DNA of 64,000 nucleotides, from the NCBI GenBank assembly GCA_000965745.1, contig CP009479.1:384001-448000 (forward strand). Direction: 5' to 3'. The DNA is from an uncultured archaeon (GTDB lineage: Archaea > Thermoplasmatota > Thermoplasmata > Thermoplasmatales > Thermoplasmataceae). Below are positions 6,292 through 23,882 of this stretch, piece after piece (positions within the stretch are counted from its first letter, which is position 1; every line of letters begins with the position of its first letter). A program made the position numbers and the translations under genes. A model generated the notes under the pieces. That model had not been told where the DNA came from. It did not search any database and worked only from the letters and a program-made list of their open reading frames with translations.

Positions 6292-6363
6292 GGGCCGGTA
6301 GATCAGCGGTAGATCGCTTGCTTCGCAAGCAAGAGGTCTCGGGTTCAAATCCCGACCGGTCCA
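6292..6363 (+). tRNA. tRNA-Ala (anticodon CGC), intronless, CCA not encoded
   Basis: Cloverleaf: acceptor GGGCCGG/CCGGTCC with the G3-U70 Ala determinant, D stem GATC/GATC, anticodon arm CTTGC-TTCGCAA-GCAAG, T arm TCGGG-TTCAAAT-CCCGA, discriminator A. Confidence 0.97.
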
Positions 6364-6386
6364 TTTAATTTATTAATCGAATACTT
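6345..6386 (+). repeat. attL: tRNA 3'-end core plus internal arm TTAATTTATTAATCGAATACTT
   Basis: The core is identical to attR. The arm at 6365-6386 is a 19/22 inverted match to 23840-23861. Confidence 0.88.
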
Positions 6387-9238: not shown

Positions 9239-11113
9239 ATGGATAAATATTTTGAAGGGGGAATAAGAAGTATGCGAGAAATGGGCTTTTCTGAACTTAT
9301 CAATGCACGAAAGGTCCTATCCAGGCCCATAATCGAACTGCCCATAAGAAATGAGGAGAGGCTATTCTATCATCCTGAAAAAAGGCTCAAAAGGTTCACC
9401 GGACGAACTGCAATTGCCTATGCCATAATACCGGATAGCGAAAGAGGCAAGTTCAGGAGAGAAGAATGCTCTCCCAAAGCCTCTTCCCTCATGGACTACA
9501 TTCTCCATAAGGGAAACAGGAACGTGTCAATAACAGGAGTATCAGGGCAGGGTAAGAGCTATCTTACCACGCACCTAATATCGATATTCAGGGACAAGGA
9601 GACAATCATATTCTCATTCAAGCCGAATGATCATGAACTGCATCTTGGGATTCCGGTTGTGGATGCAAAGGAATGCCTACCCAACCCCTTCAGGGATGTA
9701 AACGCCTTCTCCGAGTCATACATTACCGCATTCTTCGGTGAGAAGACCTCATCGGGCATACAGCTTCAGCAAACTCCTGGATTCCTGCAGGAGATCGCCT
9801 CTGAAAGCAATACCTGGAAAGACTTCATGAAAAAACTCTTGGAAAGGAAGAGATCCGCATCCAAGAATCAGGTTGAGGCTCTGAACGCAATTGAGCAGAA
9901 TGTAAAGAGCCTGATCATTGACAATATGGGAAGCGTGGTCCTGGACAATGGGAGCATCGTTTTTGACTTCTCATCCCTCCCAACGAAACAGGCGCAGAAT
10001 TTCTATGCCGAGCTAATGCTGAGGCAGATATACAGGGAAATGGAAGAGCGCAAGAGGGACGACGTTCTCATTCTGATAGACGAAGCTCATCGATTGACCA
10101 AGTCCTACCATACAATCCTTGATGTCATGTCCAGGGAGATAAGGGACAAGGGAATGCTCTGGATAATCACACAGAATCTTATCGACATACTGCCAGAAAT
10201 GAGGGCGAATTTCGGTACAAAGTTCACTTTCAGGTTAGGAGATGCCGACCTTAACATGCTTTCATACAACCCACTTATGAGATACGCTGTCGAAATACTG
10301 CAACCTAGGCAGTTCATAGACATAGAGTTCCCTGAAGGATCGTCATTCTCGCCGGTCTTCACCTACGTTTCGAATGGCCTTGAGCACAAGGAGACGCAAA
10401 AGGTCGCAGCGGTGGTATCTGAACCAAAGAGGGAAGTGGGAGTCGGAGGGAGAGGGGAGATTACCGACTACAGGAGGGAGGCCCTAGAAATCCTCAGCGA
10501 GAAAATGTCCTATGCAACTGAACCAAAGAGGGAAGTGGGAGTCGGAGGGAGAGGGGAGATTACCGACTACAGGAGGGAGGCCCTAGAAATCCTCAGCGAG
10601 AAAATGTCCTATGCAACCGAAATGGGAAAGATAATAGCCGAGAAATACGGCATCACAAAGGACCAAGCCAAACTCAGGCTGAAATCAGCACTTGAGGAAC
10701 TGAAGAACAACAACGAAGTTGGCAGAGTTAAGTATCTCAGGGATGGAAAGCCAATAGTTATGTATTATTCCAAGAGCCCAAATCTCTCCAATCTACATAC
10801 TGGAATGCAGAGCCAGGTAGTCGGAATCCTGAACGATTTGGGAGTGAGCATCAACAGGATATCCACCACCGGAGAAAGAAGCGCATTTGACATTGAAACC
10901 GACTTCTTCATGGTCGAGATTGAGACAGGCCTGAAGCACAGCATGGAAGACCTGAAGGATAGGATAAAAAGCACTAACCTTCGTGTAATAGTAATAGTGC
11001 CTAACAAAGAGCTGGTAGACAAATACAAGGATCTAGGAGAGAATGTGTCAGTGCTAACAATAGACTCTCTGGCCACTGAGATTGCTGAGCCACTGCATTC
11101 AGATAACTCCTAG
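9239..11113 (+). CDS. HerA/FtsK/VirB4-like P-loop ATPase with C-terminal wHTH-like and PD-(D/E)XK-like domains
   Basis: Walker A GVSGQGKS, Walker B LILIDEAH, REIRDKG..LWIITQ. C-terminal AFDIETDFFMVEIETG resembles a nuclease motif. Confidence 0.8.
   Translation: MDKYFEGGIRSMREMGFSELINARKVLSRPIIELPIRNEERLFYHPEKRLKRFTGRTAIAYAIIPDSERGKFRREECSPKASSLMDYILHKGNRNVSITGVSGQGKSYLTTHLISIFRDKETIIFSFKPNDHELHLGIPVVDAKECLPNPFRDVNAFSESYITAFFGEKTSSGIQLQQTPGFLQEIASESNTWKDFMKKLLERKRSASKNQVEALNAIEQNVKSLIIDNMGSVVLDNGSIVFDFSSLPTKQAQNFYAELMLRQIYREMEERKRDDVLILIDEAHRLTKSYHTILDVMSREIRDKGMLWIITQNLIDILPEMRANFGTKFTFRLGDADLNMLSYNPLMRYAVEILQPRQFIDIEFPEGSSFSPVFTYVSNGLEHKETQKVAAVVSEPKREVGVGGRGEITDYRREALEILSEKMSYATEPKREVGVGGRGEITDYRREALEILSEKMSYATEMGKIIAEKYGITKDQAKLRLKSALEELKNNNEVGRVKYLRDGKPIVMYYSKSPNLSNLHTGMQSQVVGILNDLGVSINRISTTGERSAFDIETDFFMVEIETGLKHSMEDLKDRIKSTNLRVIVIVPNKELVDKYKDLGENVSVLTIDSLATEIAEPLHSDNS
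10419..10617 (+). repeat. Perfect 99-bp in-frame tandem duplication
   Basis: 10419-10517 is identical to 10518-10616 and encodes EPKREVGVGGRGEITDYRREALEILSEKMSYAT twice. Confidence 0.95.
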
Positions 11114-13181: not shown

Positions 13182-13352
13182 ATGAAAGAGCACCAAGCAA
13201 GGACGCACCAGTGCGAGATCTGTAAACTCCATTATAACAGTAAGGGCGATGCTGAAAAGTGCCAGGAATGGTGCAGTCAGCACAACTCGTGCAACCTTGA
13301 GATAACATCAACGTCCATTGAGGCTGTGAAAAGCAGGCATGTGCCATCCTGA
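13182..13352 (+). CDS. 56-aa Cys/His-rich Zn-finger-like protein (not in ORF track)
   Basis: MKEHQARTHQCEICKLHYNSKGDAEKCQEWCSQHNSCNLEITSTSIEAVKSRHVPS*, with an AGGAG SD at 13171. Confidence 0.7.
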   Translation: MKEHQARTHQCEICKLHYNSKGDAEKCQEWCSQHNSCNLEITSTSIEAVKSRHVPS

Positions 13353-13359
13353 TTCTGCT

Positions 13360-13436
13360 GTCACTAAACTTGTAATTTTAGTAACGCCACTAAACACTGG
13401 ATTTTAATAACATATGTGTCCCTAAATTCTATGACT
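13360..13436. promoter_or_regulatory. res-like site with two clear and one weaker dyad subsites upstream of the resolvase
   Basis: GTCACTAAA-N8-TTTAGTAAC (13360-13385), GCCACTAAA-N8-TTTAATAAC (13386-13411), GTCCCTAAA (13418-13426). Confidence 0.6.
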
Positions 13437-13439
13437 TAA

Positions 13440-14045
13440 ATGACGCTCGTTTTCGCCTACGTTCGAGCCAGCACCCAAGAGGAGGTCAGGCAAGGCTCAA
13501 ATGAGAGGCAGAAGGACGTAATCAGGGAGTACGTGAAATCCAAGGCCTACGAACTGGAATTCTTTGAAGACAGGGCCAAATCTGGGAAGAACACCCAGAG
13601 GCCGGACTTCGAGAGGATGCTGAAATCCCTTGATAATAAGCCCAAGGTGGTCATTGTGGCAAAGATAGACAGGTTTGCCCGCTCCTTATCGGATCTGCTG
13701 AGAATGCTTGAATATCTGGACCAGAAGGGCATAGGATTCATCAGCGTCAACGACCCAGGCATTGATACCACCACACCCAATGGAAGGCTCCTGCTGCAAA
13801 TTCTGGGCGCATTCGCTGAATTTGAGAGGAACATGATAAATTCCAGGACCAAAGCAGGAAGGGAACAGGCGATGAATCGAGGAGTTAAATTCGGCAGACC
13901 AGCACTGAAAACAAGGAATGGCAGCTTCCTGGACAGGAGGAGAGTCATTGAATTGAAGGAGAAAGGCCTGTCTGCCAGAGCCATAGCAAAGTCCATGGAA
14001 TGCTCCGTTACACCAATACTGAGAATCCTAAAGGAGGTCTACTAA
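13440..14045 (+). CDS. Small serine recombinase (resolvase/invertase family)
   Basis: YVRAST (catalytic Ser), KIDRFARS, AFAEFER, GVKFGRP and a C-terminal HTH. Confidence 0.93.
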   Translation: MTLVFAYVRASTQEEVRQGSNERQKDVIREYVKSKAYELEFFEDRAKSGKNTQRPDFERMLKSLDNKPKVVIVAKIDRFARSLSDLLRMLEYLDQKGIGFISVNDPGIDTTTPNGRLLLQILGAFAEFERNMINSRTKAGREQAMNRGVKFGRPALKTRNGSFLDRRRVIELKEKGLSARAIAKSMECSVTPILRILKEVY

Positions 14046-14057
14046 TTCTCAGTGAAA

Positions 14058-14239
14058 GAGAGAGAGTCGCCGAACGCGTGAGCGCTCTTATTATATAATA
14101 TATACCTGATACAATGAACATTACATATTAAAAAAATGGAATTTTCCTTAATTTTTAAAGCTTGAAACGAACAAAGAACAATCCACTTGTTTTCTGACAC
14201 TCTCTCTCCAAAATCAATAACGACTGTTCTGCGACACTC
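14058..14239. other. Candidate replication origin of the element: inverted initiator-binding boxes flanking an AT-rich stretch
   Basis: GAGAGAGAGTCGCCGAAC (14058-14075) is inverted relative to TTTCTGACACTCTCTCTC (14191-14208) and GTTCTGCGACACTC (14226-14239). An AT-rich tract (~14088-14160) lies between them, directly upstream of cdc6. Confidence 0.6.
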
Positions 14240-14278
14240 AATGATTCGACTCGTTCGTTACTTTTAATAATCTTACCA

Positions 14279-15391
14279 GTGAAGCATGATTGTGCAGGTG
14301 ATCCAATGGCAATGAAAGATCCCTATGCATTCTTCGACACCAAGGTTAAGCAGAGGGCAAAGGAGACAAGCAACATAAAGAATGCCATCCTCTTTGACAT
14401 GGACTACAAGCCAAACCAGATTCTAATCAGAAAGGAGCTCGACAAGGTAACAGATGACTTAGCTGATTATGTGAACCTGCACCTGCCAAGGCACATAATC
14501 ATATACGGTTCCAAGGGGTCAGGTAAGACGCTCAGCGCCTTGATTATGGCCAGGGCCCTGAAAGAGAGCAAATCTGTGCCATATTACTACATAAACGTGA
14601 GGGAGAACCCGACATCCATCAAGGCATACCGCTACCTCACGAGAGTATCAAGCCGTGGGCACGACATAGAGGAGGTCGAGAGGAGATTCGACCAGATGCT
14701 TGAGGGAAAGTCTATCGTAATACTGGATGAAGTGGACTTCCTGCAGGACTTTGACATCCTATATCACGTCACGAGGCACACCAAGGCAAATCTTATACTG
14801 CTGACCCAGAAGGTCTACTGGTACAAGGACATGAATGATGAGAGCGTCAAGAGCTCGCTTCAGCCGGACCACATAGTATTCCACGAGTACAACGCCGAAG
14901 AAATGCGAGAGATCCTGAAGATGAGGGCCGAGGAGGGCCTTAATGGATTTGACAAGGATGCCTTGGGGCTTCTCTCTGCCATGCTGGTGAGGGAATACAG
15001 GAGCGATGCAAGAATTGGAATAAAGGCCCTGGAAATTCTCGGAAGGATAAACAAATGGACTGATGAAGCTGTAAGAGCAGCACTGAGACAGGCGTATGTT
15101 GAAGTGGAAGGGGAAACCCTGAGGAACCTTGGAGACAGGGATTTAATCATTCTCGCCTCATTGATCAAGAATCAGGACACAAACAAGGCCTACGCAGAGG
15201 TGACCAATGTCAACAACTTCCTGGTAAAGGGAATGAGCAAGTCTACATTCTTCCAGAGTGTCAACTACTTGCAGAATCTTGGTCTTGTCACACTGATCAA
15301 GAAAAAGATTGGTCGATACTACACAATGGAGTCGCAAATTTTATTATCCGATGCGTCGATTGTATCTGTCGAGCTGAAAAAAAGACTTTAG
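14279..15391 (+). CDS. cdc6: Cdc6/Orc1-like replication initiator (element-borne, divergent)
   Basis: DYKPNQILIRKEL, Walker A GSKGSGKT, ILDEVDFL, YNAEEMREILKMRA, DARIGI and a C-terminal wH domain. Likely start is ~14306 after a CAGGTGA SD. Confidence 0.85.
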   Translation: MKHDCAGDPMAMKDPYAFFDTKVKQRAKETSNIKNAILFDMDYKPNQILIRKELDKVTDDLADYVNLHLPRHIIIYGSKGSGKTLSALIMARALKESKSVPYYYINVRENPTSIKAYRYLTRVSSRGHDIEEVERRFDQMLEGKSIVILDEVDFLQDFDILYHVTRHTKANLILLTQKVYWYKDMNDESVKSSLQPDHIVFHEYNAEEMREILKMRAEEGLNGFDKDALGLLSAMLVREYRSDARIGIKALEILGRINKWTDEAVRAALRQAYVEVEGETLRNLGDRDLIILASLIKNQDTNKAYAEVTNVNNFLVKGMSKSTFFQSVNYLQNLGLVTLIKKKIGRYYTMESQILLSDASIVSVELKKRL

Positions 15392-20448: not shown

Positions 20449-20613
20449 CTAAGCAGTACTCTTTGGAATGGTGTAGGAATTCTTCTCACCCACATAGGTA
20501 TTGAAATTATTACCACACTCTGAGCATTTGTATCTTGAAACCTCATATACATTAAACGCCCATTGTTTGAGAGGAGGATTCTTATTTTCCATGTTACAGA
20601 CAGGGCACTTCAT
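20449..20613 (-). CDS. 54-aa Zn-ribbon protein with Cren7-like pattern (not in ORF track)
   Basis: MKCPVCNMENKNPPLKQWAFNVYEVSRYKCSECGNNFNTYVGEKNSYTIPKSTA*, containing two CxxC motifs. Confidence 0.7.
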   Translation of the reverse strand: MKCPVCNMENKNPPLKQWAFNVYEVSRYKCSECGNNFNTYVGEKNSYTIPKSTA

Positions 20614-20639
20614 AACGAAATAGTAGAACTAACGCCGAC

Positions 20640-20813
20640 TTAAATTTGTTCCTGTAAAAACTCCCTTGCACTTCTGACCCCTTTCTTTATATCATCTTCA
20701 CTTTTTCTTAATTGCTCCATCACACAATGGCTTTGAAGAGTTTCAATGGTAGCAAGAAGGCTATCCAGGTAGGATTTTGGTATGCTTATCAACCTGTCGT
20801 TGTGTTTTGCCAT
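20640..20813 (-). CDS. Orphan antitoxin-like small protein (Phd/YefM C-terminal-like)
   Basis: ISIPKSYLDSLLATIETLQ...MEQLRKSEDDIKKG pattern. No adjacent toxin gene was seen. Confidence 0.5.
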   Translation of the reverse strand: MAKHNDRLISIPKSYLDSLLATIETLQSHCVMEQLRKSEDDIKKGVRSAREFLQEQI

Positions 20814-20856
20814 CAAGAACAATAATACATATTCAGCTTTTAGTATCTATTGGTAA

Positions 20857-21270
20857 GACTCCGGCTCAAATTCACCCCTAACCCCTCTTTGAGCCTCCGC
20901 CGATTACTATGTGCCCTTCGCTCGCCTGCACGCCGAGCACAGGACCCCATGCTTCGACTCCAATCAAAATTCACCCCTAGCCCCTCTTTTGATTTACGTC
21001 TCGCACTCTTCTTCGAAGAGCCCCTCATTCGCCTTGCTCATTCAGGGTGGTGTCCTGTGCTCGCCGCTCGTGGTGTATGTGTGGTGTTAAACACCTTCGC
21101 TTCGCTTGGTGTTCCACACCACCCACCGCTAACGCTTACACCACTCGGTCTTGCTACGCAAGACTTCCGGCTCGCTTCGGGCACATTATTCTCTCCTGCG
21201 GAGTGCAATTTTAGGGGAACAGGGGGAGGGGAATTTTTGACCGCACAATCTCGCTGCGCTCGGTGCGGGA
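20857..21270 (-). other. Highly structured non-coding region (candidate single-strand origin / ssDNA signal, or ncRNA)
   Basis: At least 9 nested perfect stems, two repeated hairpins with compensatory stems, and C-GNA-G triloops on the minus strand. Confidence 0.75.
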
Positions 21271-21406
21271 TAATATTAGGGGTTCTCGGTCCGTGCTCAC
21301 TTCAACGATTCACAGATGGATAATACAAAGCACTGCGACCAACCCTTTTGGGAAAAGGTAGACGAAAACAAAAATTATTAGAAAATAATGTAATAACCAC
21401 GTGACG

Positions 21407-21443
21407 AGGTTTGTATAACAAACCTGACAAACAGGTTTTATAC
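21407..21443. promoter_or_regulatory. Palindromic operator and TATA-like box upstream of the DGQHR gene
   Basis: AGGTTTGT-ATA-ACAAACCT (21407-21425), an overlapping AAACCTG-N5-CAGGTTT, and TTTTATAC at ~21436. Confidence 0.55.
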
Positions 21444-21472
21444 AAGAAACCAATTAAGAGGTAGGTGAAACA

Positions 21473-23839: not shown

Positions 23840-23882
23840 AAGTATTCGCTTAATATTTTAATCAAATCCCGACCGGTCCATT
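23840..23882 (+). repeat. attR1 (arm plus tRNA-Ala 3' core)
   Basis: AAGTATTCGCTTAATATTTTAA followed by TCAAATCCCGACCGGTCCATT. Confidence 0.92.

Follow-up and report, generated by a model that had tools for sequence, protein, structure and literature searches.

An integrated Orc1/Cdc6 element and its non-coding module

The window, by which we mean the whole 64,000-nt stretch of DNA analysed here, carries an integrated element of ~17.5 kb bounded by perfect 21-nt direct repeats, TCAAATCCCGACCGGTCCATT, at positions 6345-6365 and 23862-23882, with the direct repeat adjoining a tRNA gene (6292-6363). The 429-aa ORF that follows the tRNA gene has no Pfam integrase match. A gene for a 624-aa HerA/FtsK-like ATPase occupies 9239-11113 and includes, at 10419-10616, a 99-nt unit repeated perfectly in tandem without loss of frame (2 x 99 nt, 100% identity), and repeated CACTAAAC boxes at 13340-13440, just upstream of the serine resolvase gene, form a candidate res site. 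The orc1/cdc6 gene (14279-15391) encodes a protein that matches the Orc1/Cdc6 structures 2v1u and 2qby. The first-pass annotation of this stretch had remarked on a Cdc6 theta-type replicon with no recognisable relaxase. Its remark on a Cdc6 replicon is correct, and neither a Rep protein nor a relaxase was found in the integrated element. Upstream of cdc6 lies a spacer (14046-14278) whose AT-rich core is flanked by 17-nt inverted repeats (14058-14074 and 14192-14208); it is likely the element's duplex origin, analogous to region IG1 of the Picrophilus oshimae plasmid pPO1. It is a better candidate for that role than the module described below: ORB-type origins combine an AT-rich unwinding region with inverted ORB repeats, and the module has 56% GC and no ORB dyad.

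Beyond the cargo that follows orc1/cdc6 lies a folded non-coding module, whose conserved minus-strand core spans 20857-21281 and whose optional extension reaches ~21375. The first-pass annotation had described a non-coding element of ~420 nt here; its non-coding nature holds, but the true module is longer. The extension (21282-21375, ~95 nt) comprises two hairpins, E2 (21288-21340, with an AT-rich loop) and E1 (21343-21359, CCTTTT-GGG-AAAAGG); it is conserved in the window copy and about half of the other loci, and is missing from the second copy in the same genome (copy B). We weighed a GAAA tetraloop receptor in E1 and discarded it, since the window copy lacks the UAUGG. The module forms an island of 55-56% GC against ~40% in its flanks, which in AT-rich genomes is a classic signature of RNA genes. 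It contains no credible ORF; a plus-strand ORF at 20850-21323 was rejected as spurious, and module copies differ by indels of 1-2 nt and by inserted hairpins. Among the Rfam 15 covariance models run against the window, tRNA alone reached its gathering score, the best E-value in the module region being 0.16 for a spurious lncRNA match.

Two small minus-strand genes, encoding a Phd/YefM-like protein of 57-60 aa and a zinc-ribbon protein of 54 aa, are found at 20449-20822. They lie outside the fold, have their own TATA-like box, and are downstream of the module on the folded strand, opposite to the backbone genes. On the other side, AT-rich interlocking inverted repeats (AGGTTTGTATAACAAACCT and ACAAACAGGTTT) at 21395-21445, between the module and the DndB-like gene, may be an operator for the DndB-Schlafen pair.

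A conserved fold

All stems and loops listed in the first-pass annotation are present, and were recovered both by single-sequence folding and in a consensus fold of 29 homologues. As that annotation had suggested, we compared folding of both strands under DNA and RNA parameters. With RNA parameters the plus strand folds at -161.5 kcal/mol (z -6.0 against dinucleotide shuffles) and the minus strand at -179.3 (z -6.5); with DNA parameters the values are -76.8 (z -6.4) and -92.2 (z -7.8). The real sequence beats its shuffles on both strands and with both sets (z -6 to -7.8), not one shuffle matching the real energy in any of these comparisons, and the minus strand is the more stable by 15-18 kcal/mol under each parameter set.

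The minus-strand consensus fold comprises 106 pairs in the alignment of 29 sequences. Structure is conserved among these homologues, with standard pairs in 98.0% of cells; sliding the 3' partners by 1-3 columns lowers this to 32-52%. Double-sided pair changes were observed 9 times against 3.0 expected, and 0 of 500 shuffles scored as high. Conserved secondary structure with compensatory changes is expected of a structured ncRNA gene, and the module has both.

The most distinctive parts of the fold are two signature hairpins. The first (20863-20895, minus strand, as are all features of the fold) joins a stem GGCUCAAA/UUUGAGCC to the loop GAGGGGUUAGGGGUGAA; the loop is invariant, while the stem is wholly different in pPO1 and in viral contigs. 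The second (20962-20994) has the stem AAUCAAAA/UUUUGAUU and the loop GAGGGGCUAGGGGUGAA. Optional inserted hairpins, each with its own covarying stem, share an identical loop position in both: many copies carry extra hairpins at the UUA position of the first, and 16 of 40 copies carry a UUGC-GNNA-GCAA hairpin in the second. GNRA loops cap 13 of 16 inserted hairpins. The signature loop was also examined as a possible k-turn, a reading that gained no support.

Long-range pairing organises the remainder. A helix AUGUGCCC/GGGCACAU (21179-21186 with 20909-20916), present in single and consensus folds, encloses the central domain. The stem first annotated at 20934-20945/21052-21063 is confirmed and lengthens to 18 bp, a long-range helix that joins 21048-21066 to 20931-20949; a conserved G-G mismatch interrupts it, and it also contains a G-U pair. 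A further domain at 21070-21144 consists, in the consensus fold, of the helix 21070-21077/21137-21144, the mini-hairpin GCGUUAGC (21128-21135) and the hairpin 21090-21095/21108-21113, whose loop holds GCGAAGC (21099-21105; GCTTCGC on the plus strand). Three simple hairpins complete the set: CUCUUC-GAA-GAAGAG at 21006-21020; CUUGC-GUA-GCAAG at 21148-21164, a GNA triloop in which N is U in 26 copies, A in 8, C in 3-4 and G in 1; and CUCC-GCA-GGAG at 21193-21203, which shows double-sided changes in three of its four pairs, including the compensatory variant CCCU-GCA-AGGG. A C-tract linker, CCCCUCCCCCUGUUCCCC (21214-21231, two to three tracts depending on the copy), is complementary to the G-tracts of the signature loops, and a consensus helix (76-79/472-475) hints that the two may pair. 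Last comes the hairpin CCGCAC/GUGCGG (21241-21246/21263-21268; 21241-21268 overall), whose loop holds the mini-hairpin GCGCAGC (21253-21259; GCTGCGC on the plus strand), with all four bases occurring at N and a compensatory variant GUGCAAC.

Selection on the minus strand

Sequence variation indicates which strand is kept foldable. The consensus fold contains three constitutive G-U pairs, and among wobble variants shared by at least two of the 40 copies, G-U (G-T in DNA) occurs at 14 pairs and A-C at 3. Variants confined to a single copy are even, with G-U at 21 pairs and A-C at 22. Selection therefore tolerates wobble on the minus strand only, which, together with the energy difference, supports the minus strand as the selected folded strand. 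Constitutive G-U pairs and tolerance of shared G-U variants would suit an RNA product, but the total excess of G-U over A-C is lower than that in a known RNA of the same family: 91:30 cells in the module versus 81:10 in RNase P RNA under an identical pipeline.

DNA-type mini-hairpins

The terminal loops follow the rule described for DNA mini-hairpins, in which a C-G pair closes G-N-A or G-N-N-A and the middle may be any base. The loops C-GAA-G, C-GUA-G and C-GCA-G reported earlier for the minus strand are confirmed, and in homologues the middle base takes all four identities while G, A and the C-G closing pair are fixed. Exact matches to GCG(N/NN)AGC number four on the minus strand and none on the plus strand, a ~43x enrichment over the window background of 0.18 per kb per strand. 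The variant GCGTTAGC is fixed in 35 of 40 copies; its GUUA is not a GNRA loop. Several of the mini-hairpins have stems of just 2 bp, and one of them underwent the compensatory change GCGCAGC to GUGCAAC noted above.

Such units are far more stable as DNA, where d(GCGAAGC) melts at 76.5 C and d(GCGTTAGC) at 69.5 C, than as RNA, the RNA version r(GCGAAAGC) melting at 39 C (PMC13037366). As RNA, the 2-bp GCGNAGC and GCGUUAGC units would be unstable at the growth temperature of the hosts. The natural sites listed in the discoverers' review are G4 oric, RSF1010 ssiA and the N4 promoters (PMC13037366). In the host 23S and 16S rRNAs and RNase P RNA we found no C-GNA-G hairpin with a stem of at least 4 bp, while C-GNRA-G loops are many. 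The claim that these are DNA-type loops thus gains from both the melting data and the host RNAs, but has to be qualified in one respect: the host CRISPR repeat RNA forms GCAUCCC-GCA-GGGAUGC, a C-GCA-G triloop, and therefore the loop type is not exclusive to DNA. A genome-wide ranking of C-GNA/GNNA-G hairpin clusters places the CRISPR array first, ahead of the module. This array, with at least 56 repeats of GTCGCATCCCGCAGGGATGCGTGGATTGAAAC, is found outside the window in the same genome, at ~1247300-1250900.

Signals for transcription were sought at the module borders, where we found neither a conserved TATA/BRE at a fixed distance nor an oligo-T terminator. Module copies that lack the extension occur in five unrelated upstream contexts.

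A fixed part of a plasmid backbone

A second copy of the module, 94% identical, lies 217 kb away in the same genome. Homologues are present in 41 of 103 genomes of the family and 16 of its 20 genera, often as several copies together with fragments. Beyond the family, among 401 genomes sampled, they extend to two further families of the order, with one partial match elsewhere in the class. The carriers are Thermoplasmatales, namely E-plasma, I-plasma, Cuniculiplasmataceae and related MAGs, and metagenome contigs add further copies of 76-99% identity. Two short variants (G075 890756-890981 and G076 C39 52035-52199) are missing core positions ~120-282.

The module resides in a family of integrative plasmids with a recurrent backbone: serine resolvase, AT-rich origin-like spacer, orc1/cdc6, swappable cargo, module, and again cargo. 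Order and orientation are constant in every locus with enough flanking sequence. The slot between orc1/cdc6 and the module holds type III, type IIG or other restriction systems, or nothing, while the slot beyond the module holds DndB-Schlafen in the window and TIR, a MerA-like gene or transposases at other loci. On this widespread plasmid family, the large and readily recognised module is thus placed at the boundary of two exchangeable slots for defence cargo. In the second genome copy (L064 1044-9548) and in another genome (L068 528-9044), the first slot carries the same four genes, encoding an Eco57I-type methylase (1224 aa), an HTH-IrrE/M78 peptidase, a DUF4411 protein and a PLD-SNF2 helicase (1060 aa), which are a candidate multi-gene defence system. 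The Phd/YefM-like and zinc-ribbon genes adjoin the module in ~60% of loci, with amino acid identities of 54-74% and 71-94% respectively. The module is not mobile alone; it is a conserved backbone part of the Orc1/Cdc6 plasmids and tRNA-integrated elements of the acidophilic Thermoplasmatales.

Searches of plasmid and phage collections with the module by blastn gave no match. A diverged homologue was reached solely through a search with the Cdc6 protein, which led to pPO1, whose Cdc6 is 42% identical. There the homologue is region IG2 (NC_016049.1 3709-4262). Like the module, IG2 follows cdc6 and restriction-modification cargo, precedes the HerA/FtsK-like ATPase gene and has the same orientation, on a plasmid that also carries a resolvase. 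It likewise has twin hairpins with TTCACCCC..CCCCTC loops (GAGGGG-N3-GGGGTGAA on the folded strand), a long-range helix of other sequence analogous to the one that encloses the central domain, a counterpart of the 18-bp helix (GAGCAGACGACAC/GUGUCGUCUGCUC), a G-tract, E2 and E1 hairpins and a very strong fold (z -10). The differences are that its stem sequences are entirely other, that blastn does not align it to the module, and that the CCGCAC hairpin is missing from it, as is part of the central domain. A primer pattern for pPO1 is absent from the family genomes. In pPO1 the ATPase gene directly follows the module; the window element keeps this order, with cargo, att site and integrase lying between.

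The pPO1 paper noted for IG2 a deviant GC content, an absence of Tn5 hits and a possible secondary structure, leaving its function unassigned (Angelov et al. 2011, PMC3177234). We found no other description of the module in the literature apart from this passing remark, and a preprint on AMD transcriptomes does not mention it. Rfam models gave no match at E<=0.1 to the pPO1 module or to three viral modules.

Relatives in head-tail viruses

Viral contigs were screened for the signature loop bordered by A/T-rich junctions, and the requirement of perfect flanking stems of at least 6 bp left 12 contigs. The filter is essential to how these matches are read: the bare 14-base loop motif gave 118 matches, mostly by chance, and is informative only once flanking stems are required. 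The stems of the viral signature hairpins range from 6 to 18 bp and all differ, the loops are constant, and some contain an inserted hairpin at the same position as in the plasmids. In 11 of the 12 contigs the signature hairpin, or a pair of them, lies 200-340 nt upstream of a TerL gene. These TerL genes are related (35-52% identity), a portal gene follows downstream, and a small Hjc-like or HNH-like gene sometimes intervenes between hairpin and TerL. Four of the 11 TerL-linked contigs end within 250 nt of the signature hairpin, these being contig ends rather than mapped termini, and one contig begins exactly at the closing inverted repeat of its module.

The viral modules are 430-480 nt long, closed by a long-range helix and strongly folded (z -4.5 to -9.6). 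Their GCGNAGC/GCGTTAGC mini-hairpins are biased to the TerL-sense strand (17, versus 4 on the other), they also carry clusters of G or C tracts, and they have in common with the plasmid domain at 21070-21144 the 11-mer AGCGTTAGCGG. Some are accompanied by an ORB-like TTCCAGTGGAAC. In four contigs (L246, L268, L269 and L273), the module contains a conserved palindrome, GTTATTCGGTATACCGAATAAC, upstream of the Hjc-like nuclease and TerL genes, which is a candidate terminase or nuclease site. The strand relationship of the motifs is not constant: the G-rich signature loop is on the mini-hairpin strand in the plasmids and one virus, and the C-rich loop is there in five viruses. Judged from these sequences, the flip would be awkward to reconcile with a single functional transcript.

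Viral and plasmid modules share motifs and design, not alignable sequence, and because of this, carrying the viral context over to the plasmid module is a step of interpretation. A 26-mer from the long helix had no viral match, the host's 55 CRISPR spacers matched none of the viral contigs, and the closest relatives of the viral TerL proteins in the 401 Thermoplasmata genomes are only 28% identical. The earlier suggestion of a packaging signal gains contextual support from the hairpin directly upstream of terminase genes, but the window plasmid has no terminase and carries the HerA/FtsK-like ATPase in its place.

Folded DNA or structured RNA

We tentatively favour a cis-acting site at which the minus strand acts as folded DNA, a reading to which we give somewhat less than even confidence and which we regard as slightly more likely than an RNA gene. 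The module is real and conserved, stands in fixed synteny after orc1/cdc6, and prefers the minus strand both by energy and by its wobble variants; that its state is DNA rather than RNA, and which process it serves, we infer. The site would work single-stranded, the minus strand folding into a multi-branched structure upon unwinding or transfer. Its invariant features would be the two hairpins that display the loop GAGGGG-N3-GGGG-UGAA on arbitrary stems and the set of GCGNAGC/GCGTTAGC mini-hairpins, and the folded strand would be recognised by the genome-processing machinery of the element. It could then serve in priming or initiation like G4 oric or RSF1010 ssiA, with which it shares a strand-specific intrastrand fold built around GCGNAGC-type mini-hairpins, or alternatively signal to the adjacent DNA-translocating ATPase during transfer or packaging. 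In favour of a DNA site are the 2-bp stems, which melt at 69-77 C as DNA and 39 C as RNA (PMC13037366), the four mini-hairpins on one strand and none on the other, the lack of C-GNA-G hairpins in host rRNA and RNase P RNA, and the fact that neither a conserved promoter or T-run terminator at the borders nor an Rfam match was found. The module further abuts the ATPase gene in pPO1, its signature hairpin is near TerL in viruses, and the orientation of the loop flips.

Several observations weigh against it. The element encodes no recognisable enzyme that would produce ssDNA, and it has a classic AT-rich, inverted-repeat-flanked origin candidate upstream of cdc6. Helices that span 150-310 nt could form only if over 400 nt were single-stranded simultaneously, a situation typical of RNA. 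For pPO1, non-denaturing Southern blots and S1 protection detected no ssDNA intermediates, although these were data not shown from exponential cells (PMC3177234). The proposal in the first-pass annotation that the minus strand functions as folded ssDNA stands as regards the choice of strand and the loop repertoire; the single-stranded state itself is plausible. The GC island, the C-GCA-G triloop of the host CRISPR repeat RNA, and the fact that the context borrowed from the viruses comes from unalignable modules also count against a DNA site.

The closest competitor, which we consider possible and rank below the DNA site, is a large structured ncRNA gene of ~420-520 nt transcribed from the minus strand. 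The AT-rich loop of hairpin E2 may contain its promoter, transcription then beginning close to GAGAACCCC. Such an RNA would help to maintain the plasmid, for instance by scaffolding backbone proteins or the small Phd-like and zinc-ribbon proteins encoded beside it, or would control replication. The nested fold of several domains fits such a gene, with its long-range helices, its optional hairpins added as modules and its compensatory changes; so do the GNRA loops of most inserted hairpins, the G-U pairs, the GC content, the CRISPR precedent for the loop type, the pPO1 result and the small genes downstream on the same strand. Set against this are the absence of an Rfam family match, of a conserved TATA/BRE and of an oligo-T terminator, the unrelated upstream contexts, the expected instability of the mini-hairpins as RNA, the prevalent GUUA loop, a G-U excess below that of RNase P RNA, and the viral relatives, in which a G-loop or a C-loop may occur on either strand relative to the other motifs.

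We consider it improbable that the module is a double-stranded protein-binding array, such as an iteron- or ORB-like origin, a centromere or a translocase recognition locus. Proteins would there bind the repeated TTCACCCC-N3-CCCCTC boxes, and the potential to form hairpins would be a by-product or would matter only in local cruciforms. There are three copies of the box, two direct and one as an inverted G-tract version; its orientation flips among viral modules, some of which have the ORB-like sequence beside them, and linkage to orc1/cdc6 is constant. However, the stems flanking the boxes are wholly different between lineages and yet always paired, inserted hairpins of 10-22 nt interrupt the box in a way that would disrupt a duplex site, the long-range helices keep their structure but not their sequence, tolerated mismatches are strand-asymmetric, and the GC-rich module is a poorer origin candidate than the spacer upstream of cdc6. 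A selfish MITE-like repeat or decaying functionless remnant would explain the multiple copies, patchy distribution and many fragments, but is very improbable for a module that sits on one backbone, with constant borders and always in the same place and orientation, that has no terminal inverted repeats with target-site duplications, and whose structure is kept as far as pPO1.

Returning to the folded-DNA site, a broader and more speculative version, which we regard as unlikely, is that the module belongs to an archaeal folded-DNA signal common to Orc1-type plasmids and a clade of head-tail viruses. The plasmids might then mimic the viral terminus or packaging site for satellite mobilisation, or might rely on the same host factor as the viruses for strand-specific priming; the hairpins, by presenting GGGG-N3-GGGG or its C-rich complement, could dock as a G-quadruplex or i-motif. 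If true, this would define a new class of cis-acting element in archaeal mobile DNA, where almost nothing is known of the sites for plasmid and virus replication, movement and packaging. The hallmark hairpin in any case ties the plasmid family to the packaging region of tailed viruses. Should the module be RNA instead, it would represent a new large ncRNA class with an unusual loop repertoire. Vectors derived from pPO1-type plasmids probably must keep it.

Comparison with known systems

Large ornate RNAs such as GOLLD, ROOL, HEARO/omega RNA and phi29 pRNA resemble the module in size, in GC-rich fold and in carriage by mobile elements, and phi29 pRNA also in being near packaging genes. The module differs from them in its DNA-type loops, the variable motif orientation among its relatives, and the absence of an Rfam match and of an identified promoter or terminator. 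The viral modules recall the cos/pac regions of tailed viruses, since a small HNH- or Hjc-like nuclease gene and TerL follow them directly and they are often at contig ends; known cos sites, however, are duplex sites without 450-nt folds, and the plasmid has no terminase.

The Frpo-type ssDNA promoters in the leading region of the F plasmid are folded ssDNA of ~300 nt in one orientation beside variable defence and anti-defence cargo, much as the module is placed. Frpo is a single long, imperfect hairpin resembling a bacterial -35/-10 promoter, unlike the module, in which no mimic of an archaeal TATA/BRE was identified.

Further parallels are single-strand initiation signals and complementary-strand origins, namely oric of phage G4, ssiA and ssiB of RSF1010, and the sso of RCR plasmids. 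Like the module, these are strand-specific folds built around melt-resistant GCGNAGC or C-GNA-G mini-hairpins (PMC13037366), and they are non-coding, linked in cis to a replicon and fixed in orientation. They differ in being 40-250 nt long and in belonging to replicons whose ssDNA stage is proven and whose partner, a primase or RNA polymerase, is known, whereas the module belongs to an archaeal replicon of the Cdc6 type, spans 420-520 nt and contains nested long-range helices. Should it indeed be a signal made of folded DNA, archaea would have their first counterpart to the ssi, sso and Frpo elements of bacteria, and a hidden single-stranded stage would be implied for a Cdc6 replicon.
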